From Gammaproteobacteria bacterium (GTDB lineage: Bacteria > Pseudomonadota > Gammaproteobacteria > GCA-001735895): a DNA stretch of 33,236 bases. Under the pieces are notes generated by a model that was given only the letters and a program-made list of their open reading frames with translations, made no database searches and had not been told where the DNA came from. Location of the stretch: NCBI GenBank assembly GCA_015494335.1, contig WGBK01000432.1, positions 1 to 33,236 on the forward strand. Direction: 5' to 3'. Below, one piece after another: positions 7,564 through 27,226 of this stretch; position 1 is the first letter of the stretch, and each line of letters opens with the position of its first letter. Position numbers and translations under genes: made by a program.

Positions 7564-7564
7564 C

Positions 7565-10085: not shown

Positions 10086-10091
10086 GGTGGG

Positions 10092-10967
10092 TCAGGGAAG
10101 CTGGCCGGCTTCGATCATTTTCGAATAAAGAACATTGGGGGGAACCCATTGAACAACATCATCGAACTCACTGCCGCCAGATGTTGAAATCGTCGTCGAG
10201 ACAAAAACACGATCATTGACCGTGTTGTCAAGATTTTCCCGTTGCACCCATGAATTTGCAGGCACATTGCCCATCTTGTCCTTGCCTGTCGAAAGGACAA
10301 CCACTGGCGCGCAACTTACTCCCGGATCGGAGCAATTGGTTGTTCCTCCAGCACCGATAATAACCTCCTGTGAAGAGGAACATCGAACATCGTTTGCACC
10401 TGCAGCTCCTGGAGAGGGATCTGCGGAGCAAACGACGAGATCGGGAACAAGATTCTGAATGCCTTCATCCTTCATTTCACCTGCCATAACAAAATCATCC
10501 TCAGCCGTATTTGAGCCGGAATCGGTATTGGCATCGGACACTTGGTATCGATAGGGCATCCCCCAGGGATCAAGCAGCAAACCCGTATTCGGCGAATACC
10601 TGCCTTCAAGACCCAGGGTTTTACCCGGCACAAAACCAAACCAGACATCGCAGCTATCGACGGTCGGGTCGCTTCCGCCACAGTCCAGCGCTCCACCATC
10701 TTCCCGGCATTCGAATCCATTGGATGAAACCGTCGGCGTAGCCAAATCATCCGCCCAAGCCGGGCAAGGAAGGTAGCCATTGACCTGGGCAAAGGCTTCT
10801 ATGGCTGACACAATATCCGTTAATTCCTTTTGTGCTTGACGGTATTGTTTCAACTCCTGTTGCACAGTCAGCATAGCCACGCTGTAACCGAGAAGAATCG
10901 TAACAATCAAAAGGACGATTGCTATTTCTACAAGAGTAAAACCTGAGCTGTCCCTGTATTTCAGCAT
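10092..10967 (-). CDS. Prepilin-type pilin-like protein, 291 aa, Cys-rich
   Basis: Class III signal MLKYRDSSG|FTLVEIAIVLLIVTILLG with Glu at +5. It has 9 Cys, an LPCP motif after the N-terminal helix (VNGYLPCPAWADD) and the C-terminus FDDVVQWVPPNVLYSKMIEAGQLP. Its start overlaps the stop of the upstream gene (ATGCTGA at 10961-10967). GC is lower than the surroundings. Confidence 0.85.
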   Translation of the reverse strand: MLKYRDSSGFTLVEIAIVLLIVTILLGYSVAMLTVQQELKQYRQAQKELTDIVSAIEAFAQVNGYLPCPAWADDLATPTVSSNGFECREDGGALDCGGSDPTVDSCDVWFGFVPGKTLGLEGRYSPNTGLLLDPWGMPYRYQVSDANTDSGSNTAEDDFVMAGEMKDEGIQNLVPDLVVCSADPSPGAAGANDVRCSSSQEVIIGAGGTTNCSDPGVSCAPVVVLSTGKDKMGNVPANSWVQRENLDNTVNDRVFVSTTISTSGGSEFDDVVQWVPPNVLYSKMIEAGQLP

Positions 10968-12430
10968 TCCACCACACTCAAATCTGTTGCATTCTTGATA
11001 ATACAGACAGCATAGTCATCCGGATTCAGACCGTAGGTATTCGTTGCCGCAGTACCATCATACGCGTGCTGATTAGCCGCTCCATTCAAATATTGATTCC
11101 AAACGCCCATTCGGTCCGATATGGAATCGTCGTTGGTGTAGGAAGACAAGTCCCTGTCCTGTGAACCACTCCTTTCCTCGGCAAAGAAGATGATCGCGGC
11201 AACATTGGTTCGGCCATTGATATTCAAGCAATTGCTGCCGGGGTATGATGTACAACGACTGGAAAAGGGGATAGCAGAATCCGGCGCGAAATCCTTGGCT
11301 ATTACCACAAAGAAATGGTCTTTCCAGTTTTCCCAGAGAGATGGATCCAGCCCCGTTTTTGTTTCACAGAAACCATTCCCACCGGATGAAATCACGAATA
11401 GCTTCTCAGCCGTATGGCTGAGCTTCAACCCATAAAAATGATTTGACTTATGTATATTCTGCGGGAATCGACCAAACAACCGGCCCGTCTTGTCCTTGTA
11501 ATTAGCCTTCTCTTCGTAACTTGGCAAGACCAACTTTCCCGCAAAAATCAGTTGTTGATTTGCTGGTGACACATCCCCATATTCTATCAGGCACTCTGCC
11601 AATTGATTCGTTAAATCCTTGATCGGGCTGGTTGCGCTATTCGTGCTTAACTGCTTGGTTTTCTTTATTCGATCCCAGAGTTCCTTCCTGGTGATATAAA
11701 CGATCTGGTCATTGCTGTCAGAGTTCTTCAGACTGCTTGACAGGGAAGCATCCAGGAATGACCAAACATTCCCCACATCATCAGTGGTGTAAGTCGAGTA
11801 ATCGAGGTTGCTGCCACTTTCAAGATAATTACTGCGATTAAAGTTACCCCCACACAAGGGCTGTGCTGCATCAGGTGTTCTGTCCTGGCCGGATATAACC
11901 GCACCCGGGGCAATAAGAACAGCTATGGGATACTCCGAAGGATCGGAAGAATGCTTGAGATTACCGTTTTCGTCTTCCACCGTAAGCATCCCATTAGTAT
12001 CCCAATTGACCAAGTCCATATCCGGACTGTTCTTGTAACTTCCGGAAACGGCATACCACAAACATTGTCCATTCCCATCTTCCAGTTTTCCAAGGCCAAC
12101 AGTTTTAAAAGGAAAAAGCCCCAAACTGTTTGCTCCCTTGTCACCACATGTTGGATCTTGGCTGCCTTCAAAATTCCACGAATTACTTACATCTGGACAG
12201 GGCAGTCTAGCCATAGCTCCCATATCGTTTACTGCCAAAAATTCAACCGCATAGCTCAACAAGGCTTCCTTTGCTTCCAGAAGAGAAGTTCTTGTCTTTT
12301 CCTTGGCCAATTCCTGTTTGTCTTGTACCGAGGAATCCAGCATTTTGGAAAGGCCAAAGGCCCCTAGTCCCACCATCACTATCATGAAGGTGAGTAGAGC
12401 AAAACCGGTGCTTGGTTTTTTCGTTTTCAT
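10961..12430 (-). CDS. Large atypical pilin-like protein lacking Glu+5 (GspK/PilX/MshP-style N-terminus), 489 aa, Cys-rich
   Basis: The N-terminus MKTKKPSTG|FALLTFMIVMVGLGAFGL has Thr, not Glu, at +5. About 11 Cys, the motif ARLPCPDVS, and an Asn/Ser/Asp-rich body. Sampled 60-nt lines have GC 23/60 (11401-11460) and 26/60 (11941-12000). Confidence 0.7.
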   Translation of the reverse strand: MKTKKPSTGFALLTFMIVMVGLGAFGLSKMLDSSVQDKQELAKEKTRTSLLEAKEALLSYAVEFLAVNDMGAMARLPCPDVSNSWNFEGSQDPTCGDKGANSLGLFPFKTVGLGKLEDGNGQCLWYAVSGSYKNSPDMDLVNWDTNGMLTVEDENGNLKHSSDPSEYPIAVLIAPGAVISGQDRTPDAAQPLCGGNFNRSNYLESGSNLDYSTYTTDDVGNVWSFLDASLSSSLKNSDSNDQIVYITRKELWDRIKKTKQLSTNSATSPIKDLTNQLAECLIEYGDVSPANQQLIFAGKLVLPSYEEKANYKDKTGRLFGRFPQNIHKSNHFYGLKLSHTAEKLFVISSGGNGFCETKTGLDPSLWENWKDHFFVVIAKDFAPDSAIPFSSRCTSYPGSNCLNINGRTNVAAIIFFAEERSGSQDRDLSSYTNDDSISDRMGVWNQYLNGAANQHAYDGTAATNTYGLNPDDYAVCIIKNATDLSVVEC

Positions 12431-12434
12431 GGCT

Positions 12435-12902
12435 TTACTGTTCAGCCCGCTTCTGGTACTTCACTACAACCGTATCCCCCGCCGAGCCGGTATAGACCTT
12501 GCCGCCCGGCGCCACGAGGCGCACGCGGCCGTCGCGGACAGAGATCCTGAGACGGACCACATTGTCGATACGATCGCCATCCTCGTACTGCTTGCCGTTG
12601 ACCCAGGCCACATCCTCGCCGTCGGCATTGATGCTGATGCCGGAGATATGGTATTCCGCCTCTACGGTGATCATCGCCACGGGTTCCGGCTCGGGTTCGG
12701 GTGTCTGCTGTGGAACCGCCGGTTCGGGCTTGCGTACGCGTGGCTCCTGCCGGTAGCGGTTGCGATCGATCAAGGCCCTTTCCTCGGGCGTGGTGAACAG
12801 GGTCTTGAGCTGCAGTCCTTCGACAGGCAGCTGCGCTTCAGAGGCAGCGCCCCAGAGCAGCAGGCCCATCAACCCCGGCAGTAATCTATTTCTTGCTGAC
12901 AT
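12435..12902 (-). CDS. Small secreted protein in the MshK/PilP-like position, 155 aa
   Basis: Signal peptide MSARNRLLPGLMGLLLWGAASEA|Q, a Pro/Glu linker (PEPEPEP) and a beta-rich C-terminal domain. Its start overlaps the upstream gene by 17 nt. The assignment rests on size and position only. Confidence 0.5.
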   Translation of the reverse strand: MSARNRLLPGLMGLLLWGAASEAQLPVEGLQLKTLFTTPEERALIDRNRYRQEPRVRKPEPAVPQQTPEPEPEPVAMITVEAEYHISGISINADGEDVAWVNGKQYEDGDRIDNVVRLRISVRDGRVRLVAPGGKVYTGSAGDTVVVKYQKRAEQ

Positions 12903-13494
12903 CGATACTTATCCATCGAATGGTGCATTGACCCGTCAGGTTCGGCTTGCGGGTATCCAACAGCTTGCCGGCCTGCCCCTTGAGACGCAGCGAGCAACTG
13001 TCGACCGTAAACAGGTTGCTGATCTCCTGCTCGAGGCCCTCGATCAGCGAGAACAGGTCACCCTCGTGCAGCATGTCCAGACTGACCTGCATCGGCGAAC
13101 TCTTGACCGAAACGAAGCGCAGGGGCTTGAAGCCCGGACGCTCGAAGTTTTCCTGGGGCATCAGGTTGTAACCCAGCTTGGGCAGACGCAGGCGGCTGTT
13201 GACGGCTTCCAGGCTTTCGATCCAGCTCAGACGGCGCTCCTCGCCGACCAGACCGCTGGCCTGGTAGGCATTGAACTTGGCCGTGTACTGTTCCATCAGG
13301 TCGAGGTCGCGCACCAGCTTTTCGTACTTGCTGTGGGTCGAGCGCAGGCTGTTTTCCTGCTGACGGTACTCGGCCTCTCGCTGCTGCTCGTAGTAGAGGG
13401 CGAAGTAGATCAGCCCTCCGGCAACGAGAAGGGCCAGCAGCAGGAAGACCAGAGTGCCGCGCAGATATCGCCAGTCGATGAGTTTACTTTGCAT
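12886..13494 (-). CDS. Bitopic PilO/MshJ/GspM-like assembly protein, 202 aa
   Basis: One N-terminal TM (TLVFLLLALLVAGGLIYFALYY), a coiled-coil-like stretch (EQQREAEYRQQENSLRSTHSKYEKLVRDL) and a C-terminal alpha/beta part. It overlaps the upstream gene by 11 nt. The assignment rests on architecture and position. Confidence 0.55.
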   Translation of the reverse strand: MQSKLIDWRYLRGTLVFLLLALLVAGGLIYFALYYEQQREAEYRQQENSLRSTHSKYEKLVRDLDLMEQYTAKFNAYQASGLVGEERRLSWIESLEAVNSRLRLPKLGYNLMPQENFERPGFKPLRFVSVKSSPMQVSLDMLHEGDLFSLIEGLEQEISNLFTVDSCSLRLKGQAGKLLDTRKPNLTGQCTIRWISIDVSKK

Positions 13495-15085
13495 CGGTCT
13501 TCACCTTCCTGACCACGCGGATCGTGAATTCGGCCTTGCCCTGCTCGCGCCGCTTGCCGACGCCCAGCTCGCCGCTGAGCTGTTTTTCCGATTCGACATC
13601 GAGCGGTCGCTTGAGCACCTCGACCTGGTCATACCAGCCGGAAACGCGCATCGCATCCTCGAGATCGGCCACGGCGCTGAGTGCGTAGCGATAGTTGCCA
13701 TCGAAGTCGATGATCTGCCCCGTGAACACGGCAATTTCGAACAGGCCCTTCTGCGCCTTCGGCACTCGGCGATCGCGCCTCGCACGCCGCTTGCGTTTCT
13801 TGCTCTTGCCCCAGGTAATCTCCTGGGCGGCAGTGGCATCGGAACTGGGTGCCAGGAACCAGTCGTACTGGGTCACGCGCATGCTGTCGTAGAGGCTGAT
13901 CTGCTGGCTGATCATGATCATCATCGCTTGCGGCCGCTGCTGGTAGTTCTTCTCCAGCCTTTCCACCGTCTTGACGACATTCTGCATCATCGCGGTACTG
14001 ACCTCGGATCCGGCGCGCGTCGACGACAGCTGCTTGTACTTGGATTCGTATTTCTGCTGCAGCAGCTTCATTTCCTCGGCGCTGTCGTCGTAGAGCCAGC
14101 CCTTGATCAGCGCGCTGCCGAGCAGACCGACGGCCACGGCCAGCAAGGCCACGCCGGCAAAGCGCATCGCCAGGCTGGCCGCATGGTGGTAGAAGTATTT
14201 CTTTTCCTCGCGCCGCGCATAGTGATTGACATAGATGCCGCGGGTGGCGTGGTAACAGAACAGGGCGGAACTGAAATCCTGCTCCTCGGGCACCTCGATC
14301 TTTTCCTCCGACAACACCTGGTTGATCTCGTGGATGCGGTAGTCGAACTCGCTGTTCTCGTCCACCTGGGCACGCAGTTTTTCGAGATGGCGCTGGTTGG
14401 TCAGGACATGGACCTCGACCACATCGGAGCGGTCGATGATGCGCTGGCTGACCAGGTAGCGCTGGGTGCTTTCGACATCGCGCACCACAGCCTGGGCGTA
14501 GTCGCCCTGGTAGAAGCTGGCGATCGGCACCAGACGACTGAGGATCAGCTTGCCGTCGACGAACACCGACTGACGCAGGTTACTCGGCACCTGCTGGCTG
14601 ACCAGGATCACGCAACGCTGCTCGGCCTTGAAGCGCTCCACCACACTCTCGCTGAGCAGCGGCAGACTGAGAATGCCCGACACCGGCACCTTTTGCTTGT
14701 CGATCAGTTCCAGCCAGGGCTCCAGCAGTTGCGGATTGGTCAGACCCATCAGCAGCAGCTTTTCTTCCTTGCGTCCCTTGTCCTTGACCACGCCCTGGGA
14801 GACGACATGGCGGTATTCGGTATTGCGGAAATACTTGTTGAGGCTGCGCTCGATGATTTCCTTGCGATCCGGTCCGCGCAGCAGCGGCACCGTGATCTGA
14901 CGGAACTCCTCCTCGATCAGGTCCACCAGCAGACGCACAGGCTGGTGATGCAGGGATTCGAGGTAGGCCGAGAACAGGTCCAGGCCCAGCTCGTCCGGCT
15001 CGAAATAGACGCTGCTGACCAGTTTCTGGCCGTCCCATTCCTGGGCAACCATTCTGTATCCGGTGAAGTAGAGGATTCTTTTCAT
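13484..15085 (-). CDS. PilM+PilN fusion-like (MshI/GspL-like) inner-membrane assembly protein, 533 aa
   Basis: A cytoplasmic domain of ~300 aa, one central TM (FAGVALLAVAVGLLGSALI) and a periplasmic C-terminal ~210 aa. It immediately follows the platform gene. The periplasmic part carries an unusual basic run, GKSKKRKRRARRDRRVPKAQKG. Confidence 0.55.
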   Translation of the reverse strand: MKRILYFTGYRMVAQEWDGQKLVSSVYFEPDELGLDLFSAYLESLHHQPVRLLVDLIEEEFRQITVPLLRGPDRKEIIERSLNKYFRNTEYRHVVSQGVVKDKGRKEEKLLLMGLTNPQLLEPWLELIDKQKVPVSGILSLPLLSESVVERFKAEQRCVILVSQQVPSNLRQSVFVDGKLILSRLVPIASFYQGDYAQAVVRDVESTQRYLVSQRIIDRSDVVEVHVLTNQRHLEKLRAQVDENSEFDYRIHEINQVLSEEKIEVPEEQDFSSALFCYHATRGIYVNHYARREEKKYFYHHAASLAMRFAGVALLAVAVGLLGSALIKGWLYDDSAEEMKLLQQKYESKYKQLSSTRAGSEVSTAMMQNVVKTVERLEKNYQQRPQAMMIMISQQISLYDSMRVTQYDWFLAPSSDATAAQEITWGKSKKRKRRARRDRRVPKAQKGLFEIAVFTGQIIDFDGNYRYALSAVADLEDAMRVSGWYDQVEVLKRPLDVESEKQLSGELGVGKRREQGKAEFTIRVVRKVKTDAK

Positions 15086-15091
15086 GTCGGC

Positions 15092-16297
15092 TCAGAAATT
15101 GATTGTGCTGATGGTGTCGTACATCGGCCCGAATACGGCGACGATCAGCCACAGCACGATGCCGCCGATCGTCACCAGCAGGCCGGTCTGCAGCACCGGC
15201 TCCATCTTGTCCATGCGATCGTTGATGTCGCGTTCGAAGAAATAACTGACGTTTTCCAGCGATTCATCCATGCGTCCGGTGGATTCGCCGACCTTGAGCA
15301 TACGGATCACCAGCGGCGGGAAGATGCCGATATTCTGAAAGCTCTCGCTGATGCTCGCGCCCTCGGAAATCAGCTTCCAGGCACGGTCGATACCCTCTTC
15401 GAGCACACTATTGCTGACCACGGTCTTGCTCAGCTTGATGGCGTCGAGCACGGTGATGCCGGAAGCGAACATCAGCGCGAAATAGCGGGTGAAACGGGAC
15501 ACCTTGATCTTCTCGTTGACCTCGCCGAAGGGCCACATGCGCAGCAGCAGGCCGTCCATGTAGAAACGGAATCGCGCATTGTTGCGGTAATAATGACGGA
15601 TCAGAAAACCGGCCACAAAGGGGAAGGCAATCACCAGGTACCAGTAGTTCTGCAGGAATTTCGAGGTCGCCATCAGGGCCTGGGTGTACCAGGGAATCTC
15701 GCCGCCGAGGCTGACGATGGCGCTGATGATGTCGGGCACGACGAAGATCATCAGGAACATGATGACGGCAAAGATCAGCGTGCCGATCACCGCCGGGTAG
15801 GTGACCGCCTTCTTGGCCTTGGCAATGATCTCGTCCTGCCACTTGAGGTTCTCGGTGATGTCCTCGAGCACCTGCGCCATGCGCCCGCTGCGCTCGCCGA
15901 CCTTGACCAGACTGACGAAGACATTGTCGAACACGCGCGGGTACATGGCCAGCGCCTGGGAGAAGGCACTGCCGGTCTCCACCGCCTCGATGAGGCTGGC
16001 GATGACATCACGAAAGGCCGGGTTCTCCTCGCTGTCACGCAGGTCCTGCAGGCCTTCGAGGATCGGCACGCCGGACTTGGCCAGCTGTTGCAGGTGGAAG
16101 CTGAAGTTGATCAGGTCGCGCCGGGTGATCTTGTTACGACCGAACAGGTCTCCGCCGGGTTGTTTCGGCTTGGCCTTGACCAGCGACAGACCCATCTTCT
16201 CGAGGCGGATCTCCAGATCCGGCACATTGCCGGCATCGAGGCTGCCGCGTACCGGCTTCCCGCTCTGATCGATGGCCTTGTACTCGTACAGCGGCAT
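15092..16297 (-). CDS. GspF/PilC/MshG-family inner-membrane platform protein, 401 aa
   Basis: Two GspF-type repeats (RDLINFSFHLQQLAKSGVPILEGL...; RFTRYFALMFASGITVLDAI...LVIRMLKVGESTGRMDESL) and three TM segments. Its ATG overlaps the TAA of the ATPase gene by 1 nt. Confidence 0.92.
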   Translation of the reverse strand: MPLYEYKAIDQSGKPVRGSLDAGNVPDLEIRLEKMGLSLVKAKPKQPGGDLFGRNKITRRDLINFSFHLQQLAKSGVPILEGLQDLRDSEENPAFRDVIASLIEAVETGSAFSQALAMYPRVFDNVFVSLVKVGERSGRMAQVLEDITENLKWQDEIIAKAKKAVTYPAVIGTLIFAVIMFLMIFVVPDIISAIVSLGGEIPWYTQALMATSKFLQNYWYLVIAFPFVAGFLIRHYYRNNARFRFYMDGLLLRMWPFGEVNEKIKVSRFTRYFALMFASGITVLDAIKLSKTVVSNSVLEEGIDRAWKLISEGASISESFQNIGIFPPLVIRMLKVGESTGRMDESLENVSYFFERDINDRMDKMEPVLQTGLLVTIGGIVLWLIVAVFGPMYDTISTINF

Positions 16298-18012: not shown

Positions 18013-20288
18013 GGATTCAGCACCTCGATCCGCTGCGCCACCTGGTCGGCATCAAAGGTCGCCAGTACCCGGTCACGACTGGCCAGGGCACGACGATAGT
18101 ACTCGACCGCCACCTCGGGCTTGCCCAGGTGCTCCAGGCTGACCGCCAGGTTGTAGGCGGCATTGGCATCGTCGGGTTTGCGCTGCAGGGCCTGGAAGTA
18201 GGCCGCCTGCGCCTCGGCCCAGCGCTGCTGGCGGCTGTACATGTTGCCGAGGGTGAAGTAGAGATAGGGCGCGTCGGGCTGCTCCCTCAGCATTTCCTTG
18301 ATGCGCGTCTCGCCGTTCTGCGGGTCGATGTTGGCGACGGCGAGCAGCGACGCCATGGCCTCGCTGTCCTTCGGGTTCAGCAGCAACAGGCGCTGGTAGA
18401 GCTCGATGGCGCGGTTGTAGTCACCATCCTGCACCTCGATGGCGGCCATGCCGAGCAGGGCATCGCGGTTGTCGGGGTCGAGAGCCAGTACCTGGGCATA
18501 GCGTCGGCGCGCCTCGGACAGATCACCCTGTTCGTAGGCCCCGTAGGCTTCGTTGAGCAGGCGGTCCTTGTCGTCGATGCGCTCGCTGCTGCTCAATTTC
18601 AACCGGGCCGGGCGGGATTCAGTCGGCGCGGCGGCGGTTTCGGCGGATTTTTCCGCGGCCGGCACCGCAGCCGCGGAGCGGGATGTCGCTGCAGACGGAG
18701 ACTCGGCCTTGCGTTCCTGACCCATGGGCTTCGCGGGCTGCGGTTCCACTGCGGTTCCGGTCTCGACCCCGGTCGCGCCGGAATCTGCGATCTCGGTCCC
18801 TGGTCGGGTCGACGCTGCAGTGGTTTCCGGCGTTTCGGGCTGATCCGCCGAGGCCAGGGTCACACCCTTGGCATCGCCGCCGACCGGTTTTGCGAAGAGG
18901 TCGATTTTCTCTTCCCTGGGCGGCTGGATCACGCCAGGCATCGGATCCCGCTTGAGACGCGCCAGGCTGTTGTCGATGCGATCGGATTCATCGCTGAGGT
19001 CGTACAATGCCCACAGACCCACCATCATCAGCAACAACAACGCCATGCCGCCCATCCATTTCAGGTAGCGGCCACGGTGCTGCGACGACTTGCTCATGAA
19101 CACCTTTTTCGCGTAGTCGGGCGTCATCACCGCGCCAGGCTCCGGCTTGATGCCGGGGAAAATCCGCGATACATCGCTGTCGGACAGCTTGATCAGGGTG
19201 CGATCGTAGTTGTCCGGCGCATAGCCTCCGCGTCCGGTGGTGGAGGTCGTTGCACCCAGGGTCTGCTCGTTGGTCAGGCGGTCGATATCGACGGAGGCCG
19301 TCGGGGATTCCGGGTTGATGATCGTCGACTGCTCGTCATCATCGATCGGCGCAGACGAACCCGGATCATCGACGCGCCCGCCCGGCATCGGCCGGCCGCT
19401 GTGGGTGGTATCGTCCAGAGCCCGCTGGGCGCGTTCCTCGGGATTGGTCAGGGTGGTGTCGTCGGAGCCCAGATCGCTGGCGGAGCGATCGAGATCGTCC
19501 AGGCTGACCGGGCGCATCTCGACGGTGCGGGTCGCGGCGGTGGCGTCGATGCCCGAGGCATCGGAGGAGTCGGCGCCATCGCCCATGAAGGCGGTGACAT
19601 CGTCCTGGGTCAGTTCGGGTTGCGACGCGGCCCGCAGGCGGGCCAGTTCCTCGGCGCTGAACTCGTCGGTCTCGATCAGCGTATTGCCGTCTCGATCAAT
19701 GGGAATGCTGTCGTCCATGACCAGCAGGGTCGGGTCGGTGCCCTGATCGACGGCCGAGAATTCCGTAGTGTCGGAGGACAGGTGGGTTTCGGAAAGATCG
19801 TCGTCGGCCTGTTCACCCGGCCCCTGGTCGAAACGCTCGGTTTCGGTCCAGGCTCCGCCGGTCGAGGTTTCGTCCTCCCGGTTCGGCATCCCGGTTTCAC
19901 CGACCGGGCGGGTTTCATCGTGATCGGCAGCCTCCATGCGCTCGGTTTCGACAAAGCCTTCGTTGACCTCGGTGGAATCGACCTCGGTGGCATCGATGAG
20001 GGTGGTGTCGACGAGCGTCTGCTCGAACTCGCCCGCGTCCATGCGCTCGGTGCGGGTGTAGGTTTCGGTGACCTCGGTCTCGTCGTGCCGCCGGGTTTCG
20101 GTCAGGTCCCGCTCCGTCTCGGTGGTGTCCACTTCGGTGGCATCGATTCGCTGGGTGCGGGTCATGGCCTCGGTTTCGTCGACGCGGGTGGTCTCGGCAG
20201 AGGCCGCATCCGTATCGCCCTCGGCCTGGCCGCTCTTCTGCGCCTTCTTCTCGGCCGCTTTCTTGAGTGCGTCTAAGAGTAAACTCAT
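18009..20288 (-). CDS. Bitopic protein: GspB-like N-terminus, ~400-aa acidic Thr/Glu/Asp-rich region, TM, Pro/Ala/Thr linker and C-terminal TPR domain (MshN-like position), 759 aa
   Basis: ATG 20288 is preceded by GGAGG. The N-terminus MSLLLDALKKAAEKK resembles the MSYILDALRKA start of GspB/ExeB proteins (from memory). Degenerate repeats occur (IDATEVDTTETER...HDET, IDATEVDSTEV..ETER...HDET). TM MGGMALLLLMMVGLWALY. TPR-like C-terminus (YGAYEQGDLSEARRRYAQVLALDPDNRDALLGMA...). Confidence 0.7.
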   Translation of the reverse strand: MSLLLDALKKAAEKKAQKSGQAEGDTDAASAETTRVDETEAMTRTQRIDATEVDTTETERDLTETRRHDETEVTETYTRTERMDAGEFEQTLVDTTLIDATEVDSTEVNEGFVETERMEAADHDETRPVGETGMPNREDETSTGGAWTETERFDQGPGEQADDDLSETHLSSDTTEFSAVDQGTDPTLLVMDDSIPIDRDGNTLIETDEFSAEELARLRAASQPELTQDDVTAFMGDGADSSDASGIDATAATRTVEMRPVSLDDLDRSASDLGSDDTTLTNPEERAQRALDDTTHSGRPMPGGRVDDPGSSAPIDDDEQSTIINPESPTASVDIDRLTNEQTLGATTSTTGRGGYAPDNYDRTLIKLSDSDVSRIFPGIKPEPGAVMTPDYAKKVFMSKSSQHRGRYLKWMGGMALLLLMMVGLWALYDLSDESDRIDNSLARLKRDPMPGVIQPPREEKIDLFAKPVGGDAKGVTLASADQPETPETTAASTRPGTEIADSGATGVETGTAVEPQPAKPMGQERKAESPSAATSRSAAAVPAAEKSAETAAAPTESRPARLKLSSSERIDDKDRLLNEAYGAYEQGDLSEARRRYAQVLALDPDNRDALLGMAAIEVQDGDYNRAIELYQRLLLLNPKDSEAMASLLAVANIDPQNGETRIKEMLREQPDAPYLYFTLGNMYSRQQRWAEAQAAYFQALQRKPDDANAAYNLAVSLEHLGKPEVAVEYYRRALASRDRVLATFDADQVAQRIEVLNP

Positions 20289-20314
20289 GGGTAGCCTCCG
20301 CTGACCTGACCCGG

Positions 20315-21859
20315 TTATTCGCTCTTGCGTTCCGGGGTCAGGAAGCGCTTGTAATCCCTGAAGTCGGTGTTCAGGCTGGCATTACGCACTACCCGGGGCC
20401 GCAGGAAGATCACCAGCTCGGTCTTGCGATACTTGCGGGACTTGGTGCCGAACAGGTAACCGAAACCTTCCACATCCTGCAGACCGGGAATGCCGCGGTG
20501 GCCCTCGTCGGTGGTATCCTGCATCAGACCTCCGATGACGGCGGTATTGCCGTTGGCGACACGCAACACCGACTCCATCTCGCGCACCTGGATCTCCGGC
20601 ACCTTGTTGGAGACACCGGCCGCGGCCAGCGCCGGGTTGGGCGTATCTATGAACTGAAGGATGCGCGACAGGGTCGGCCGGATATTGAGAATCACTTCAT
20701 CGTTCTCGGTGATATAGGGCGTCACATTCATGACGAAACCGACCGGAACCGTGTGGATCGTAGTGGTGTAGGTGGTTTTGGCGGCGCTGTTGTTGGTGGC
20801 TTCCTTCTCCTCGACCTCGGTGGTGAAATAGACCCGGTTATCGACCACCTTGAGTACTGAGGTCTGGTTGTTCAGTGCCATGATCTTGGGGCTGGACATG
20901 ACCGAGACATCGCCGAACTGATGCAGTGCGCGGATCGAGGCGCTGATCGCGCGATCGCTGTTGCTGTTGGTGTAAGTAGCCGCGAGGAACGGGGCTACAC
21001 CCAGATTGCCGGCCAGCGTGCTTTGCTGGAAGCTCCAGCCATTGCCTTGGGCCAGTCGCGCCCAATCCACGCCGGCCTGGAACTCGTCATTGAGCGTGAC
21101 CTCGACCACCGTGGCCTCGATCAGTACCTGCTTGCGCGCATTGGCCAGCACCTGGTCGAGAAAGTTCTGGATCGAACGATGTGCCGACTCGGTGGCGGTG
21201 ACCAGGATGGTGCCGGTCTCGCGGTGGGAAACCACCGAACCTCCCTCGGCCAGCGCTGTCAGGTTACTCTCCAGGCTCTTCCAGAACTCGTTGACGGCGG
21301 TATTGCTGACCGTCGTCGAGGAATTGCTGCCGCCGCCCCCGCCCTCGGTGGTGCCAGGCGAGGCGATCTGGGTGTTGACCGACACGTCGGAGGCGGTCTT
21401 GCGCGCCATGTTGAGGTAGTCGATGCGGTACACTCGGGTGAAGGGGCGGTCGCGCTCAACGATCAGGTTGGGGCCGTCCAGGGTATAGCGCAGCTTCACC
21501 TGGCGCGCAATCCGCTTGAGAATCTGCGGCAGGGTCTGGTCGATGGCGTTGATGCTGACCTTGCCCTCGATGGCCGGATCGATGTCGAGGTTGAGACGGG
21601 CATCGCGGGCCAGTGCGAACAGCAGGTCCCGCGCCGGGAGGTCGGTGGCCACGACGGTGAAGGTCTGCAGCTTCTTCGACGGTTTCGGCGGTGTCACGAT
21701 CGGGGCGCTGTCCACCACCGGCGGAATCGTCTGGTCGACCACCTGGGGAATGGGTTCGTTGACATGGCCGACCGGCTTCATGCGCTCGTCCTTGGCCGGA
21801 AAGGTGGTGCTGCAACCCGCCAGGGTCAGCAAGATCACGATAGAGAGGATGTATTTCAT
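20315..21859 (-). CDS. Outer-membrane secretin, lipoprotein form (MshL-like), 514 aa
   Basis: Lipobox LTLAGC at residues 11-16, an N-domain region (FTVVATDLPARDLLFALARDARLNLDIDPAIEGKVSI) and a secretin C-domain (VLKVVDN...VLRVANGNTAVIGGLMQD...GIPGLQDVEGFGYLFGTKSRKYRKTELVIFLRPRVV). Confidence 0.9.
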   Translation of the reverse strand: MKYILSIVILLTLAGCSTTFPAKDERMKPVGHVNEPIPQVVDQTIPPVVDSAPIVTPPKPSKKLQTFTVVATDLPARDLLFALARDARLNLDIDPAIEGKVSINAIDQTLPQILKRIARQVKLRYTLDGPNLIVERDRPFTRVYRIDYLNMARKTASDVSVNTQIASPGTTEGGGGGSNSSTTVSNTAVNEFWKSLESNLTALAEGGSVVSHRETGTILVTATESAHRSIQNFLDQVLANARKQVLIEATVVEVTLNDEFQAGVDWARLAQGNGWSFQQSTLAGNLGVAPFLAATYTNSNSDRAISASIRALHQFGDVSVMSSPKIMALNNQTSVLKVVDNRVYFTTEVEEKEATNNSAAKTTYTTTIHTVPVGFVMNVTPYITENDEVILNIRPTLSRILQFIDTPNPALAAAGVSNKVPEIQVREMESVLRVANGNTAVIGGLMQDTTDEGHRGIPGLQDVEGFGYLFGTKSRKYRKTELVIFLRPRVVRNASLNTDFRDYKRFLTPERKSE

Positions 21860-21896
21860 TGTTGTTCCCAGTCCGTATAACCGCCACTATGATAAT

Positions 21897-23693
21897 TCAC
21901 GCGATCCCCGCTTGCCCGTCCGGCCGCGGAGGTTCGCGCCTGCCCGCCGGCGTCTTTGCGCCGACTCGTCCTTCCATTCCTGCCGCCTTTCGGCGACCCT
22001 GCAACAGCACCTGCTGCATGCGGTAGATCGAATGCAGGTAGGGCTGGTTGACCTGTATCGCCGGGGGCAGCTCACGGACTGCCTGTTGCCCGGCCGTAAT
22101 GGTCGGATACTCGCCGTAGAATACTCGAAAGATATCCCCCGATGGCTTGCTCACTTCAAACAGGTAGGTCTTGTCGAGATCCAGCGGCCACTCCCTGAGC
22201 AGGTAGTTTTCCAGCTCCTGCGCCGCGGCCCGGTTCCGCACCATCACCTGTATCGATACGCCCTGACGGTCGGCCTGCTCCAGCCAGGCCCGGCTCTGTT
22301 CCAACTTTTTCTGCAGCCAGCCCTGCGGTGCCTGCGATTCCGGCCCCGCCGTCCTGGTGGCCCCGGCAATCGCATCCGGAGCAGCAACAGGGGCGCTCGA
22401 GGTATCTCTTGAAGTCCCCGGCACAACAGCCTGATTTGCATTAACTTTATCAAGTTTATCGCCCCTCAGTGCGTTTTTTTTTGAACCAGCCGGCATTTCC
22501 TCGAGGCTTGCAGTACCGGGCCTTGCAGCTTCAGACTCGTCGGGGCTGTCGCCGGAAAGCTTTTTCGATGCCCCCTCGGCCCGGGAATCCGGTTTTGTGC
22601 TCCTGAAGGCATTGTTTTGCGGCGCCGGCTCGTTGCCGGGGGATAAAGGCGAGTCGACCGCCTGCGGCACCGGCTCCGCTCTGGCAGGATTGCCCTGACG
22701 GTTCGTAGTGGCCACAGACTGGTTTTCGGCGGGCGCAACCGCGGCGACAGGCCCGGTCACCGGCGATGCCAGGCCGAGCCACTGCGGTTGCAGCTTGTAG
22801 ATCGTCAGCAGGGCGATCAGCAACAGGATCAAACCCAGCAGGGACCAGAACAGCGGGCCGTGTCGGCTGCGTTCGATGCCGAGCCGGGTGAAGCCGCTGT
22901 CTTCCACCGCCTCGCGGAGATGCTTCGAGGTCAGGGTATGGGTGTCGCTGGCATAGGCCGCCAGCAGCATCTTGTCGGCCAGGATATTGACGCGGCGCAG
23001 CAAGCCCTCGGAATGATGGGCAATCTGCTTCGCCAGCTTGCGGTTGATCAGCTCGGGGCCAGTGTAACCGACCTCGCGCATGCGGAAATTGAGATAGCGG
23101 TGGATCTCTTCGGCATCCAGCGGCGCCAGCTTGAACTCGTGAGTGATGCGCTCGCGCAACTGGCGGATGGACTTCTTCGACAGGTTCTCGTCCAGCTCCG
23201 GCTGGCCGAACAGGATGATCTGCAGCAGCTTGTGCTGATCCGTCTCCAGGTTGGACAGCAGGCGGATCTCCTCGAGGGTTTCCAGCGGCATGCCCTGGGC
23301 TTCCTCGATGAACAGCACCACCTGGCGGTCCTCGGCATGACGCTTGAGCAGATAGTTCTGCAACTGCGCCACCAGCTCGTGCTTGGAGGCATCGCGGTCG
23401 ATGTCGAAATGCAGCTCGCTGGCGATGACGAACAGGATGTCTTCCGGCGACACGCTGGGGTTGGCGATGTAGATGATCTCCACATCCTGCGGCAGGATCT
23501 GCTGCAGCATGCGGCAGAGCATGGTCTTGCCGCTGCCGACCTCGCCCACCACCTTGACGATACCCTCGCCACGCTGCACCGCATAGGCCAGCGCCGCGAG
23601 AATGTCGCCGCGCCGTCCGCCCTCATAGAAAAGCGAGGTGTCCGGCGTGATGCGGAAGGGCGGCCGGTTCAGGCCGAAGTATTCTTCATACAT
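21897..23693 (-). CDS. ExeA/GspA/MshM-like AAA+ ATPase fused to a TM segment, a long low-complexity linker and a SPOR-like C-terminal domain, 598 aa
   Basis: N-terminus MYEEYFGLNRPPFRITPD, Walker A GEVGSGKT, Walker B VVLFIEEAQ, and LFGQPEL. TM LFWSLLGLILLLIALLTI at about residues 282-300. After a ~170-aa Pro/Ala/Ser-rich linker comes GVSIQVMV...IFRVFYGEYPTITAGQQAVRELPPAIQVNQPYLHSIYRMQ, which parallels DamX-type SPOR domains ([40 protein letters not shown], from memory). Confidence 0.85.
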   Translation of the reverse strand: MYEEYFGLNRPPFRITPDTSLFYEGGRRGDILAALAYAVQRGEGIVKVVGEVGSGKTMLCRMLQQILPQDVEIIYIANPSVSPEDILFVIASELHFDIDRDASKHELVAQLQNYLLKRHAEDRQVVLFIEEAQGMPLETLEEIRLLSNLETDQHKLLQIILFGQPELDENLSKKSIRQLRERITHEFKLAPLDAEEIHRYLNFRMREVGYTGPELINRKLAKQIAHHSEGLLRRVNILADKMLLAAYASDTHTLTSKHLREAVEDSGFTRLGIERSRHGPLFWSLLGLILLLIALLTIYKLQPQWLGLASPVTGPVAAVAPAENQSVATTNRQGNPARAEPVPQAVDSPLSPGNEPAPQNNAFRSTKPDSRAEGASKKLSGDSPDESEAARPGTASLEEMPAGSKKNALRGDKLDKVNANQAVVPGTSRDTSSAPVAAPDAIAGATRTAGPESQAPQGWLQKKLEQSRAWLEQADRQGVSIQVMVRNRAAAQELENYLLREWPLDLDKTYLFEVSKPSGDIFRVFYGEYPTITAGQQAVRELPPAIQVNQPYLHSIYRMQQVLLQGRRKAAGMEGRVGAKTPAGRREPPRPDGQAGIA

Positions 23694-23770
23694 GGGTCAT
23701 GTCATCCTGGTCTCGCTCCATGATAATCGCGGGACCGGCCACGGAAACGCGCGCTGGTGCACAAAGCCGC

Positions 23771-25192
23771 TCACTCGTCATCGTTTTGCGCCTCCGCCGC
23801 CTCGGCACCGCCGACGCGCTCCAGGCGTCCGTACAGGGTGGAACGGTTGATACCCAGCAGCTCGGCCGCCCGGCTCATATTGTTGTCGCTCTGGCGCAAC
23901 GCGAGTTCGATCCATTCGCGCTCGATGCGCTTGAGGGCGTCGCCGAGCTGGAATCCGGGTTGCCGCAACTGCTCGTGCAGCCACTGTTCCGACTGCTCCA
24001 CACCCTTCGCCGCCGGCTGCACGCCCGCCGGCTGCAGTTCCTGATGCAGAACTTCCCGCTTGATGGTCTGCCCCGGGTATTTTGCCGACAGACGGATCAC
24101 CACATTGCGCAGTTCTCGCACATTGCCCGGAAACTCGTGCTGCAACCAGAGTTCGCGGGCCTCGTCGTCGAGACGAAAGCTTCCCGCCCCGTCCGGCGCC
24201 TGGCGCTGGAAATAGTCGAGCAGCAACAGCTTGTCGCCGTCGCGTTCCCGCAGTGCCGGAACACGCAGGGTCAAGACGCTGAGACGATGGTAGAGATCCT
24301 CGCGGAAACGGCCCTCGGACACCGCCTGCAGCAGATCCTTGTTGCTCGCCGCCAGCACCCGACAGCGTGCCTGCCGCGGCCGGGTCTCACCAAGACGATA
24401 GAACTCGCCATTCTCCAGCACGCGCAGCAGCTTGGCCTGCAGATCCAGCGGCAGGTCGGCGATCTCGTCGAGCAGCAGGGTTCCAGCCCCCGTCTCTTCG
24501 AAGAAACCGGGGCGCGCTTCCCGGGCCCCGGTAAAGGCGCCCCGGGCATGGCCAAACAGCTGAGACTCGAGCAGCTCGCCATTGAAGGCGGCGCAGTTGA
24601 GTGTCAGAAAGGGTTCCGCCGAGCGGCGGCTGAAGCGGTGCAGGCTCAGCGCCACCAGTTCCTTGCCGCTGCCGGATTCGCCCTGGATCAGCAGCGGATA
24701 GGGCGAATCGGCGAGCTGCAGGATCTGTTCGCGCAGCAGCTCGATGGCCGGACTCTGGCCGATGATGCCCATGTCCTCGTCGGCGGGACGGCTCGGTTCC
24801 TGATCCCTTTCCAGTTGCCGCTTGAGCCGCATTTTCAGCTCCGCGACATCGCAGGGCTTGGGGATGAAATCCGCCGCCCCGAGTTGCAGGGCCCGTTCGA
24901 CCTGAGCGCGATCGTCCTGCCCCGAGAGCACCAGGATACGCGTTTGCGGAAACTTGCGGTGCAGATGCTCGATCACCGCCAGGCCCTCGTCGGGCAGGTG
25001 AGTGTCCGGCGGCAAGCCCAGGTCCACAAGCGCCAGCATCGGCGCCGGATCCATGCGCTGCAGCAGTTCGATGGCAGCGGGCCGATCCTCGGCCACTTCG
25101 ACCTGGAAGTCGGAGCTCAGCACGTACTTCAGGCTTTCGGCGATGATCGCATCGTCATCGACGATCAGCAGCGAAGAGTGATCGCGGTTCAT
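23771..25192 (-). CDS. Sigma54-dependent two-component response regulator (NtrC family), 473 aa
   Basis: The ATG at 25192 gives MNRDHSSLLIVDDD. The track start at 25366 is an unsupported extension. Receiver with LVDLGLPPD, Walker A GESGSGKE, GAFTGA loop, Walker B TLLLDEIADL and C-terminal HTH NMSRAAELLGINRSTLYGRL. The DLGLPPD...EG receiver pattern resembles PrsR-type regulators (from memory). Confidence 0.92.
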   Translation of the reverse strand: MNRDHSSLLIVDDDAIIAESLKYVLSSDFQVEVAEDRPAAIELLQRMDPAPMLALVDLGLPPDTHLPDEGLAVIEHLHRKFPQTRILVLSGQDDRAQVERALQLGAADFIPKPCDVAELKMRLKRQLERDQEPSRPADEDMGIIGQSPAIELLREQILQLADSPYPLLIQGESGSGKELVALSLHRFSRRSAEPFLTLNCAAFNGELLESQLFGHARGAFTGAREARPGFFEETGAGTLLLDEIADLPLDLQAKLLRVLENGEFYRLGETRPRQARCRVLAASNKDLLQAVSEGRFREDLYHRLSVLTLRVPALRERDGDKLLLLDYFQRQAPDGAGSFRLDDEARELWLQHEFPGNVRELRNVVIRLSAKYPGQTIKREVLHQELQPAGVQPAAKGVEQSEQWLHEQLRQPGFQLGDALKRIEREWIELALRQSDNNMSRAAELLGINRSTLYGRLERVGGAEAAEAQNDDE

Positions 25193-25227
25193 GACAGGCG
25201 GGGCTGCGGCAGGGGGTTCATCCGGCC

Positions 25228-25256
25228 AGTATAGTGTCGAAATATCGACATGACAA
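25228..25256 (-). promoter_or_regulatory. Candidate sigma70 promoter of the response-regulator gene, with a 16-bp palindrome in the spacer
   Basis: Minus strand: TTGTCA (25256-25251), a 17-nt spacer, then TATACT (25233-25228). The spacer contains the perfect inverted repeat TGTCGA-NNNN-TCGACA (25235-25250). The -10 element ends 36 nt upstream of ATG 25192. Confidence 0.45.
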
Positions 25257-25375
25257 ACCTTGATCTCAGGAAATCCACGGATCTCGTTGTTTTGAAAGGA
25301 TTTCTCTTCGATGGCAGGCACAGAACACAAACCGGGAGCATCATTTTCGACCCGCTTCGGGTTCAAGCGATGCCC

Positions 25376-25891
25376 TCAAGGCGGAGCCGCCGACACCGTC
25401 AGGCGCAGGCGTCGCGAGACGTAATCGGGGTTGGCCATGCCGCCGCTGGCGTAGCTGCCACTCTCCGCCAGCGCGGTGATGCGGTAGAACTGCAGGGTAT
25501 CGGTGGCTTCCACATGGGTCGAGCTGCTGCATTCCAGGGTCACGCGGAAAGCCCTCAGCGCATCCTCGTCACTGCCGAAATTGAGTGTCTCGGAGGCCGG
25601 GCATATGCCCGATTGCAGGGCCCGGTAGGCCGCATAGTCCAGGCCGCTGCGCGCGGCCTGCATCGCACGGGCGCCCTGCACCGCCATTGCCAAGGTACTG
25701 TGTTGCACCACCGCCAGGCTGACCATGTAGGCCATCAGCGAGGCCAGCACTACCAGCAGGAAGATGGCCGTGATCAGGGAAAAACCTTGTTGTTTGTTAG
25801 CCCGCCTATCTCTCCACTGTTCGTGGCGAGGCGAACCAATGGCACGGCAGGAGGGTGGTGAGATATGCGGGTCAGGGTGCATTGTTGACAT
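25376..25891 (-). CDS. Pilin-like protein without Glu+5, MshP-like position, 171 aa
   Basis: Hydrophobic N-terminal segment QQG|FSLITAIFLLVVLASLMAYMV with Thr at +5, preceded by a ~35-aa extension, so the start may be mis-set. It is the last gene of the minor-pilin run and overlaps the upstream gene by 20 nt. Confidence 0.55.
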   Translation of the reverse strand: MSTMHPDPHISPPSCRAIGSPRHEQWRDRRANKQQGFSLITAIFLLVVLASLMAYMVSLAVVQHSTLAMAVQGARAMQAARSGLDYAAYRALQSGICPASETLNFGSDEDALRAFRVTLECSSSTHVEATDTLQFYRITALAESGSYASGGMANPDYVSRRLRLTVSAAPP

Positions 25892-26750: not shown

Positions 26751-27226
26751 CACCAGGCCGTCCGGTAGCCCGACAAGCGGATCGGGTCGATGGCGGGATG
26801 ATCCACGACCACATCGATGCGCCGCGCCCGGCTGGCCGCCAGTGCGCCGAGAGCGTGGGGTTGCACGGTCACGGTGACCTGGTAGTCGGCCAGTTCGGGC
26901 AGGGCCGTGCCCTGCTGATCGGCCGGGGCGTGGTTGGCGGGCAGGGCGTTGTAGTCCTGCACATCATCGAAATCGGCGCGGGTCTCGCCGGCCTCGCTGC
27001 TGCCCGTCTCCGCCGCACAGGCGGGCATGTCCTCGCAGAAGGCCTTCAGCTCGATCTCTTCCAGATAGGCTTCGGCGATGGCCAGGGCCTGCTCGCGAAT
27101 CATCGGGTCGGCGCTACGCGAAACCAGGGCCGTGAACACGCCCGTCATCGCGGTCGCCGCCAGCGCCACGACCAGGATGGTCACCAGCAGTTCGATCAAC
27201 GTGAAGCCATTCGATTCAAAGCGCAT
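26750..27226 (-). CDS. Small minor pilin-like protein, MshD/GspI-PilV-like position, 158 aa
   Basis: The ATG at 27226 gives MRFESNG|FTLIELLVTILVVALAATAM. The track start at 27253 is an extension. It overlaps the upstream gene by 11 nt. Confidence 0.7.
   Translation of the reverse strand: MRFESNGFTLIELLVTILVVALAATAMTGVFTALVSRSADPMIREQALAIAEAYLEEIELKAFCEDMPACAAETGSSEAGETRADFDDVQDYNALPANHAPADQQGTALPELADYQVTVTVQPHALGALAASRARRIDVVVDHPAIDPIRLSGYRTAW

Follow-up and report, generated by a model that had tools for sequence, protein, structure and literature searches.

The classes of type IV filaments (T4F) are type IVa pili (T4aP), type IVb pili (T4bP), Tad, Com, the mannose-sensitive haemagglutinin (MSH) system and the type II secretion system (T2SS), and most of what is known about MSH comes from Vibrio. 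Here we analyse a 33,236-bp stretch of gammaproteobacterial DNA (contig WGBK01000432.1; hereafter the window; G+C content ~62%), in which a rearranged set of T4F genes, cluster A, adjoins the distal part of an MSH operon, cluster B. The MSH system of Vibrio cholerae, Aeromonas and Pseudoalteromonas has been defined in the TXSScan models of type IV filaments (TFF), in which MshM is mandatory, and its loci do not contain a prepilin peptidase (Denise et al. 2019, PMC6668835). For Sideroxydans lithotrophicus ES-1 and Gallionella capsiferriformans ES-2, Emerson et al. (2013, PMC3770913) described conserved clusters of unknown function that are homologous to MSH but show "significant gene rearrangement" relative to V. 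cholerae and P. tunicata; no gene list was printed ("data not shown"). A 2023 paper labelled such clusters "MSHA" in metagenome-assembled genomes (MAGs) of Gallionellaceae (PMC10734482). In the literature searched we found no paper analysing a cluster A-type system itself; the supplementary tables of Denise et al. gave no result for Sideroxydans or Gallionella, and the Sideroxydans CL21 transcriptome paper is silent on the cluster.

Cluster A, together with the extension described below, is probably a self-contained T4F machine of a deep-branching, MSH-related kind, and its most likely product is an adhesive surface fibre. Every core T4F function is present and intact in it. The MshL-type secretin, the MshM-like AAA+ protein and, in small neighbour-joining (NJ) trees, the sister position of secretin and platform protein to the MSH ones mark a relative of MSH; a deep-branching sister lineage of MSH, and not a chimera of MSH and T2SS, is the description that suits the system best.

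The likeness to MSH lies in an MshL-type secretin, an MshM-type AAA+ protein, an MshN-type tetratricopeptide repeat (TPR) protein and an MshEN-carrying ATPase, in a secretin and a platform protein that come out as sisters of the MSH ones (in small NJ trees), and in the organization as a single locus without prepilin peptidase or retraction ATPase. As the original prediction, made from the sequence alone, had stated, the window holds no prepilin peptidase (GspO-like sequence) and no retraction ATPase, its T2SSE ATPases being two in total. The differences from MSH are just as clear in gene content. The order is M-L-N-E-G-I/J/K-like in cluster A but I-J-K-L-M-N-E-G-F in MSH; no MshF-like gene was found in cluster A, again as predicted; three pilin-like genes stand in place of the A/B/C/D/O/P(/Q) set; and the equivalents of MshI, MshJ and MshK have no significant sequence similarity to these proteins. 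Cluster A has an ATPase outside the MshE clade, an AAA+ protein with an added transmembrane (TM) helix and periplasmic domain, and a TPR protein of ~750 aa with a long acidic region, and it encodes sigma54 two-component regulators and an ABC-2 transporter of its own.

Gene content of cluster A

The core of cluster A consists of eleven intact, tightly packed open reading frames (ORFs) on the minus strand between 10092 and 25192. All eleven genes were found where they had been predicted, as were their junctions (GTGA at 18009-18012, TAATG at 16295-16299, and overlaps at 13484-13494, 12886-12902 and 10961-10967). In the order of transcription they are:

23771-25192, minus strand: sigma54 response regulator with REC, sigma54 AAA+ and Fis-type HTH domains (Pfam Sigma54_activat, 208 bits; Response_reg; HTH_8)
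21897-23693, minus strand: MshM-like AAA+ ATPase, 598 aa (AAA_22, 101 bits)
20315-21859, minus strand: outer-membrane lipoprotein secretin of MshL type (TIGR02519, pilus_MshL)
18009-20288, minus strand: MshN-like TPR protein, 759 aa (TPR families at aa 575-740)
16297-18012, minus strand: assembly ATPase (T2SSE, 423 bits) with an N-terminal MshEN c-di-GMP-binding domain (64.8 bits)
15092-16297, minus strand: inner-membrane platform protein of the GspF/PilC/MshG family (T2SSF, 160 bits)
13484-15085, minus strand: predicted PilM+PilN fusion, GspL-like, 533 aa (AlphaFold2 and Foldseek)
12886-13494, minus strand: bitopic inner-membrane protein, 202 aa, TM helix 15-33 (TM prediction and position)
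12435-12902, minus strand: small secreted protein, 155 aa, with signal peptide, Pro-rich linker and C-terminal beta-rich part (N-terminal signal-like sequence)
10961-12430, minus strand: giant pilin-like protein, 489 aa (AlphaFold2 and N-terminus)
10092-10967, minus strand: type IV pilin-like protein, 291 aa, with a G|FTLVE N-terminus and a Cys-rich head (N_methyl, 24.3 bits; TIGR02532)

Pfam and NCBIfam bore out the predicted labels of sigma54 regulator, AAA ATPase, secretin, TPR protein, T2SSE plus MshEN, T2SSF and one N_methyl pilin. The four genes between 10961 and 15085 have no match in either library, so the first labels given to them were guesses. Scans of the window for Rfam families and tRNAs gave no matches.

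The conserved module does not end at 10092. The part that follows, down to 5196, codes for a histidine kinase, ABC-2 transporter proteins and a third pilin. Since the same extension is present in the window and in related loci, the unit is ~20 kb long (5196-25192) and not 15 kb.

Relation to the adjoining MSH operon

Judged by its sequence, cluster A is a distinct and complete second T4F machine, not one part of a split locus or a recent duplicate. Its neighbour comprises:

25376-33236, minus strand: distal part of a separate canonical MSH operon with MshN, E, G, F, an inverted pilin gene and C-, D-, O- and P-like pilins (family matches)
27831-28280, plus strand: likely major (MshA-like) pilin gene of cluster B, on the strand opposite to the other msh genes

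This neighbour had been taken for the ordinary distal half of an MSH operon, which it is, except for the inverted orientation of its likely major pilin gene. The original prediction had also pointed to the sequence beyond 33236 as the place to look for mshI-J-K-L. These genes are there: the metagenome contig L001, 99.5% identical to window positions 18831-33236, extends 6.8 kb further and carries mshI (293 aa), a PilN-domain mshI2, mshJ, mshK, an MshL secretin (556 aa) and MshM (271 aa). On L001 cluster B thus has mshI, I2, J, K, L, M, N, E, G and F plus five pilin-like genes and is complete, so that the split-locus reading fails and cluster A is a genuine second machine. Because MshM and the secretin of cluster B lie just beyond 33236, the claimed side-by-side doubling of parts was overstated for the window, which has two ATPases but a single full ExeA/MshM-like gene and a single secretin. 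The MshE of cluster B is 60% identical to its Aeromonas caviae homologue (taken as MshE), and the Aeromonas locus shares its gene order.

That A and B together make up a single split MSHA system with shared parts, or that A is a decaying duplicate of B, is therefore extremely improbable. Their close association does speak for such a link: only 183 nt separate 25192 from 25376, in six or more further species-level genomes an MshP-like gene ends shortly before the regulator, and no large mshQ-like gene, as known from the V. cholerae msh locus, follows mshP in cluster B. Yet cluster B is complete alone, and cluster A has its own intact ATPase, platform protein, secretin, alignment proteins and pilins. 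Paralogue identity between the two is 26-40% (M 40%, L 32%, E 36%, G 26%), and A-type proteins are conserved over >80 species. Several loci in which 230-1235 nt upstream of the regulator can be seen show no MshP-like gene, and a Sideroxydans locus has the same 11-gene core. As the MshP-like gene is present in some loci only, adjacency to MSH is recurrent but not obligatory. The proposal of a distinct T4F machine thus stands, with its own complete gene set, the low paralogue identity and a conserved gene order behind it.

Some details of the junction and of cluster B may be added. Cluster B ends in its MshP-like gene, and the cluster A regulator follows directly, with positions 25193-25375 between them. 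The inverted pilin gene converges on the mshF-like gene, and this arrangement is identical in L001-L003, which are contigs of the same or near-identical strains.

Motor proteins

A different view of cluster A is that it works like a T2SS, a short periplasmic pseudopilus pushing folded proteins through the secretin, with the ExeA-like AAA+ protein and its TPR partner assembling the secretin. We consider this unlikely, and the motor proteins supply part of the reason. The cluster A ATPase has an MshEN N-terminus and scores above the cut-off for the MshE-related c-di-GMP motif (NF053729, 59.8 bits vs 38). It stays below the equivalog cut-offs for both GspE (TIGR02533, 517 vs 630) and PilB (TIGR02538, 530 vs 675.65).

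In an NJ tree of ATPases (21 taxa, 552 columns, Kimura distances, 200 bootstraps), A-type ATPases form a clade with 100% bootstrap, separate from MshE, GspE and PilB. A second 100% clade unites the MshE of cluster B with the ATPases of syntenic MSH-type loci of Aeromonas and Legionella, which were taken as MshE from the synteny of their loci, and GspE forms a third. A-type ATPases are 35-37% identical to members of the MshE clade. Group hidden Markov models (HMMs) give the same picture: with the MshE model, the A ATPases score 460-489, members 1082-1119 and non-members 383-573, and for all three models (MshE, GspE and PilB) the A ATPases are at the out-of-family level.

The platform protein is 26% identical to MshG of cluster B and 28% to E. 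coli GspF. It falls below the GspF equivalog cut-off (TIGR02120, 289.5 vs 424) and groups with MshG (99%) in an NJ tree with two outgroups only (GspF and HofC). Trees of ATPase, platform protein and secretin had been proposed as a check on the distinctness of the cluster. They support it in part: the ATPase lies outside the MshE clade, and the secretin and platform protein come out as sisters of MSH.

Secretin, AAA+ protein and TPR protein

The secretin passes the MshL cut-off (TIGR02519, 261.8 bits vs 250.2; the MshL of cluster B scores 291.2) and remains below those for GspD (TIGR02517, 173 vs 351) and PilQ (TIGR02515, 129 vs 284). It has the lipobox LAGC, and a lipobox is present in most orthologues. 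An NJ tree joins it to MshL (95%) and leaves it out of the canonical MshL clade (96%), as a sister and not nested. By equivalog scores, then, the cluster A proteins lie outside GspE, GspD and GspF, and the secretin and platform protein group with MSH instead of GspD and GspF, both of which count against a T2SS-like function. Nor does cluster A fit the type IVa pilus, as its proteins are below the PilB and PilQ cut-offs.

The AAA+ protein has its ATPase domain at aa 1-270; behind a TM helix (281-299), a disordered linker leads to a SPOR-like periplasmic domain at the C-terminus. Its sequence is 40% identical to MshM of cluster B (267 aa, E 2e-65) and 36% to Legionella MshM, but only 23% to E. 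coli GspA (E 3e-4). Canonical MshM proteins have 271-295 aa and do not possess the extra TM helix and periplasmic domain. The SPOR match is weak (E=0.0055, 17.5 bits, below the gathering threshold of 21), a similar C-terminal domain occurs in the Sideroxydans orthologue, and Pfam found no PF01471 peptidoglycan-binding domain in the protein. From these comparisons, the AAA+ protein is MSH-type in sequence and ExeA/GspA-like in architecture. The architecture is the part that favours a T2SS-like function: in the T2SS, too, a membrane-anchored AAA+ protein with a putative peptidoglycan-binding domain (ExeA/GspA) stands beside a bitopic partner (ExeB/GspB) and the secretin. The periplasmic domain, SPOR-like and weak instead of PF01471, and the higher identity to MshM set cluster A apart from that pair.

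The MshN-like protein carries an N-terminal MSLLLDALKKAAEKK motif, a ~400-aa acidic low-complexity region, one TM helix and a C-terminal TPR domain. The MSLLLDALKKAAEKK N-terminus is kept in nearly all recovered orthologue starts from Gamma- and Betaproteobacteria. It reads MSLLLDALKK in the window, and canonical MshN proteins start with MSVINQ(V/M)L(R/K)DL or MSLLNEMLKDL. This N-terminus had been regarded as GspB-type and hence as a T2SS hallmark. We reject this candidate: the protein has no Pfam T2SSB match and no similarity to E. coli GspB, and since canonical MshN has a like motif, the motif is not a GspB/T2SS marker. With an MshM-like AAA+ protein, a motif shared with MshN and a secretin above the MshL cut-off, the description of the locus as an MSH/T2SS hybrid has to be given up. 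The cytoplasmic part of the MshN-like protein (residues ~20-400) is very acidic and rich in Thr, Glu and Asp, with loose "TE(V/T)D"-type repeats, and its orthologues range from 525 to 800 aa.

Alignment proteins

The 533-aa protein was identified through structure prediction alone, as the sequence routes gave no match: none was found in Pfam, NCBIfam or PDB sequences with a 33-sequence profile. Its AlphaFold2 model (predicted local distance difference test, pLDDT, 79) comprises an actin-like N-terminal half, a TM helix with a coiled coil, and a periplasmic alpha/beta domain. Foldseek retrieved PilM first (5eoy, 2ych; E ~1e-11), followed by FtsA and cyto-EpsL/GspL (1yf5, 4pht), the latter with TM-scores on the target of 0.58-0.67. 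The predicted structure thus confirms the original assignment as a PilM-PilN fusion, in a GspL-like arrangement. The PilM-like fold means that a functional equivalent of the MSH alignment protein exists. The fusion shares the architecture of GspL, which is again a point for a T2SS-like pseudopilus, as is the match to cyto-EpsL/GspL, but the best structural match is PilM and not GspL. In type IVa pili, PilM and PilN are separate and not fused. The family is large: 1712 clusters of a 50%-identity library, 475 of them at E<=1e-30 and of equal length. Close homologues number over 480; none has a Pfam domain or an informative name, nearly all being unnamed or "hypothetical protein". Among members of the clusters nearly all are unnamed and one is called "PilC".

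The next two proteins had been labelled PilO-like and PilP/MshK-like, and topology plus one weak profile match is what these labels retain. The 202-aa gene always directly follows the 533-aa gene in the loci mapped, and hhalign comparisons of its product with MshJ, MshI2 and GspM gave no significant match; by position and topology it might be PilO/GspM/MshJ-like. The position of the 155-aa gene is also kept across loci. Its product matches the canonical MshK alignment weakly over aa 91-136 (hhalign probability 30%, E 5e-4) and could be MshK/PilP-like. Comparison of the alignment-complex proteins with MshI and MshI2 by hhalign yielded E ~0.1, and with E. coli GspL, GspM and GspC no match at the sequence level. 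In blastp searches, the 533-, 202-, 155- and 489-aa proteins shared no similarity with any cluster B protein.

Pilin-like proteins

The 489-aa protein has a prepilin-like N-terminus that does not have Glu5 (G|FALLT). Its AlphaFold2 model (pLDDT 86, predicted TM-score 0.83) shows a 52-residue alpha1 helix (residues 9-60) and a Cys-rich head of ~430 aa with nine invariant Cys, and no PDB structure matches the fold of this head (best E=1.3). All of its 492 homologues are unnamed or called "PulG". The 291-aa protein is a probable minor pilin. Of the two adjacent pilin-like genes originally proposed, the one at 10092-10967 was supported by its N_methyl match and the other only by the pilin-type helix of its model. 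The claim that there are no others did not survive, as a third, sigma54-driven pilin gene outside the predicted boundaries (5985-6674) belongs to the module. PDB sequence searches with the 291-aa and 229-aa pilins matched the N-terminal helix only. All three pilin-like genes resemble cluster B pilins only in the N-terminal 20-50 residues, and the GspG and GspH matches are confined to the N-terminal methylation region, far below the cut-off.

For a T2SS-like function it could be said that the pilin-like genes are three only, that a large pilin-like protein without Glu5 recalls the tip pseudopilin GspK, and that there is no retraction ATPase. However, three pilin-like genes would cover three of the five pseudopilins GspG-K, no GspC/H/I/J equivalents and no GspC-type PDZ protein were recognized in cluster A, and the hhalign match between the 489-aa family and E. 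coli GspK covers the N-terminal 21 residues only. Nor is any candidate substrate gene conserved in the module. These observations, like the position of the ATPase outside the GspE clade, count against a T2SS-like function.

The pilin-like genes stand out in two further respects. G+C content falls to 0.47-0.50 at 10001-12000 and 0.53 at 6001-7000, against ~0.62 elsewhere in the window, and these genes are the least conserved of the module, the 489-aa protein having 28-39% identity compared with 80-86% for the ATPase. Together, these features suggest that surface-exposed parts evolve fast or are swapped as cassettes. Two orthologues of the 489-aa protein have 1114 and 1125 aa and two others ~650 aa, so the head domain can be greatly expanded.

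Regulators and the ABC-2 extension

The extension below 10092 contains the following features:

8367-10085, plus strand: sensor histidine kinase with about seven N-terminal TM helices (HATPase_c; weak PrsK match, 53.7 bits vs cut-off 300)
7565-8383, minus strand: polytopic membrane protein, weakly ABC-2 permease-like, with seven predicted TM helices (ABC2_membrane_3, E=0.011, below cut-off)
6784-7563, minus strand: bitopic protein of ~259 aa (from MASKSF...), with a helical periplasmic part and one TM helix (TM prediction)
6735-6750, minus strand: sigma54-type -24/-12 promoter TGGCACGAATAATGTA, 61 nt upstream of the third pilin gene
5985-6674, minus strand: third pilin, 229 aa, with a G|FTLVE N-terminus, no Cys, Gly/Ser-rich (N_methyl, 29 bits; TIGR02532)
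5935-5963, no strand assigned: perfect 13-bp hairpin with A- and T-tract flanks, a bidirectional intrinsic terminator between the third pilin and ABC ATPase genes
5196-5918, minus strand: ABC transporter ATP-binding protein, ABC-2/DrrA-like, the last gene of the module (ABC_tran, 83 bits; drrA subfamily, 131 bits)

Orthologues occupy equivalent positions in many loci: 26 for the third pilin, 27 for the histidine kinase (on the same strand), 28 for the bitopic protein, which has no family match, and about ten in which the ABC-2 permease-like protein is detectable. The position of the ABC ATPase gene is conserved as well. The regulator heads the cluster in most loci that extend far enough upstream, and its start at 25192 agrees with an independent 473-aa gene call on L001. 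We presume that the histidine kinase is its partner.

In 19 of 27 loci an equivalent element (TGGCAC-N5-xTGCW) precedes the orthologous pilin gene by 30-76 nt, as opposed to 27 of 1640 random 200-nt windows (1.6%). A search of the whole window for the sigma54 pattern alone found 17 occurrences, not above the 17.7 expected by chance; the signal therefore comes from the comparison across loci only, the single copy not being significant. In type IVa pili of Pseudomonas, Myxococcus and Geobacter, the major pilin gene pilA is under sigma54 control through PilS/PilR. Cluster A resembles this arrangement in its polytopic kinase, its sigma54 regulator and the -24/-12 promoter at a monocistronic pilin gene with a terminator behind it. 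Since its gene is transcribed alone from a sigma54 promoter, in a module with its own activator and seven-TM kinase, the third pilin is the best candidate for the major subunit, which it probably is. The best matches of the cluster A regulators are NtrC, PrsR and PrsK, all below cut-off, and not PilS or PilR; a further difference is that the regulators are embedded in the machine operon itself.

A sigma54 promoter before the AAA+ gene was also considered and rejected, as it is not conserved in the close clade (5/41). In a distant clade (L074, L075 and L077), a near-consensus sigma54 promoter (e.g. TGGCACTAAAATTGCT) is seen ~40 nt upstream of the AAA+ gene; these loci have no regulator gene before the AAA+ gene and an RR-like (response regulator-like) gene downstream on the other strand. 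In the window, the longest ORFs of the kinase (plus strand) and the ABC-2-like protein (minus strand) share 17 nt at their 5' ends (8367-8383). As the two genes are 34 nt apart in locus L004, at least one true start in the window probably lies further inside.

The ABC-2 genes raise the question whether cluster A exports or anchors a polymer or glycan, in the style of PEP-CTERM/exopolysaccharide or hormogonium polysaccharide systems, with the ABC-2 transporter supplying the substrate. In favour of this, the best NCBIfam matches of the regulator, kinase, AAA+ and TPR proteins include PrsR, PrsK, pepcterm_ATPase and PrsT, the ABC-2 genes belong to the conserved module, and a Wzy_C/TPR gene flanks the cluster in L004. 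The four matches are, however, far below their cut-offs (341 vs 503, 54 vs 300, 223 vs 324 and 64 vs 312), and since the MshM of cluster B gives the same pepcterm_ATPase match with a higher score (251), the resemblance is generic. We therefore reject a PEP-CTERM/exosortase link. The conserved genes of the module include no exosortase, glycosyltransferase or polysaccharide polymerase, Wzy_C is absent from the window, and the Sideroxydans core occurs without the ABC genes, all of which makes polymer export a highly doubtful function.

Conservation and distribution

The distribution of the system was surveyed with one genome per species. The survey was built on the closer alignment (A2) and is thus biased to close relatives. 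It recovered at least 80 species-level loci, all from MAGs or uncultured genomes and nearly all labelled Gammaproteobacteria, with carriers including the Olavius algarvensis Gamma 3 symbiont, Thiohalobacter, Thiogranum and a Magnetococcus MAG. By tblastn there is a single order, RR-AAA+-secretin-TPR-ATPase-platform-533-202-155-489-291-(histidine kinase, opposite strand)-272-294-pilin-ABC ATPase. The survey of gene order proposed with the original prediction thus found RR-M-L-N-E-G-(I/J/K-like)-pilins maintained in all these species-level genomes. The order persists even where the 533-aa protein is 25-29% identical and the ATPase 60-65%. Across carrier genomes, identity of the A-type ATPase is 60-86%, which indicates purifying selection.

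A Sideroxydans MAG (L098; Betaproteobacteria) has the identical 11-gene core order, and its ATPase shares 62% identity with the one in the window. Its cluster was not seen adjoining a canonical MSH operon, and its 487-aa protein has >1000 relatives in MAGs of Gallionellaceae and Nitrosomonadales. On the strength of this shared gene order, the rearranged MSH clusters described earlier (PMC3770913, PMC10734482) probably represent the same system as cluster A. The original idea that the standard MSH, T4aP or T2SS gene models miss the system may be overstated, as genome papers on Gallionellaceae already give such clusters an MSH/MSHA label.

Proposed mode of action and significance

If cluster A is an MSH-related pilus machine, it may work as follows. 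The histidine kinase (8367-10085) would phosphorylate the sigma54 activator (23771-25192), which would turn on the monocistronic pilin gene (5985-6674) from its -24/-12 promoter. A prepilin peptidase encoded elsewhere would act on the third and the 291-aa pilins and perhaps also on the 489-aa protein, which has no Glu5. The MshEN ATPase, presumably activated by c-di-GMP, would drive the platform protein and thereby pilin polymerization, while the 533-aa fusion and the PilO-like 202-aa and MshK/PilP-like 155-aa proteins could connect the motor to the lipoprotein secretin. By analogy with ExeAB, the MshN-like protein and the membrane-anchored AAA+ protein, whose periplasmic domain is SPOR-like, might help the secretin to assemble through the peptidoglycan. 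Priming or capping of the fibre might fall to the 489-aa and 291-aa pilin-like proteins.

Several points weigh against this interpretation. The ATPase falls outside the MshE clade, and the deep position of the A clade has bootstrap values of 20-48. The trees are neighbour-joining trees with few reference taxa and outgroups; such distance trees establish sisterhood but not fine placement. A pilus leaves the ABC-2 transporter genes without an explained role, and the PilM-PilN fusion and the membrane-anchored AAA+ protein would also fit a secretion pseudopilus. The assignments of the 202-aa and 155-aa proteins are weak, and the -12 element of the promoter copy in the window is GT, not GC. Next to the core in L098 there is no kinase, ABC transporter or third-pilin extension, so the third pilin may not be a universal major subunit. 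Finally, both the fibre and its phenotype are predicted from the genes.

The analysis points to a second, old MSH-related lineage that coexists with canonical MSH in one genome and is widespread in environmental chemolithoautotrophs. The ATPase clade, the alignment proteins and the large pilin-like protein escape Pfam and NCBIfam and go under the name of hypothetical proteins. Defining the system would improve T4F annotation in metagenomes and add three or four protein families, one of them without a PDB fold match. It is also a candidate for surface attachment in iron and sulfur oxidizers, some of which are cultured (Sideroxydans, Gallionella). No concept is overturned, since all parts stay within the known T4F blueprint. 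More tentatively, we put forward as a possibility, less likely than not, that cluster A is a family-level T4F branch and sister of MSH, with its own ATPase clade, three alignment families without recognizable sequence relatives and a giant pilin of undescribed fold, and that it serves as the main regulated surface organelle of uncultured sulfur- and iron-oxidizing Gamma- and Betaproteobacteria, for example in attachment to minerals or hosts.

Genes flanking the module

In locus L004 (GCA_050298135.1), the module is flanked by a gene for a 637-aa Wzy_C (O-antigen ligase-like) plus TPR protein (20357-21548, minus strand), a candidate pilin glycosylase or polysaccharide gene; no such Wzy_C/TPR gene occurs in the window. 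There, a glnA-ntrB-ntrC operon (735-5177, plus strand) converges on the ABC ATPase gene, so that a second sigma54 activator, NtrC, is encoded right beside the module. An RR-like gene follows the ABC gene on the opposite strand in L006, L007, L008, L026 and L041, which suggests that synteny on the ntrC side may be conserved.

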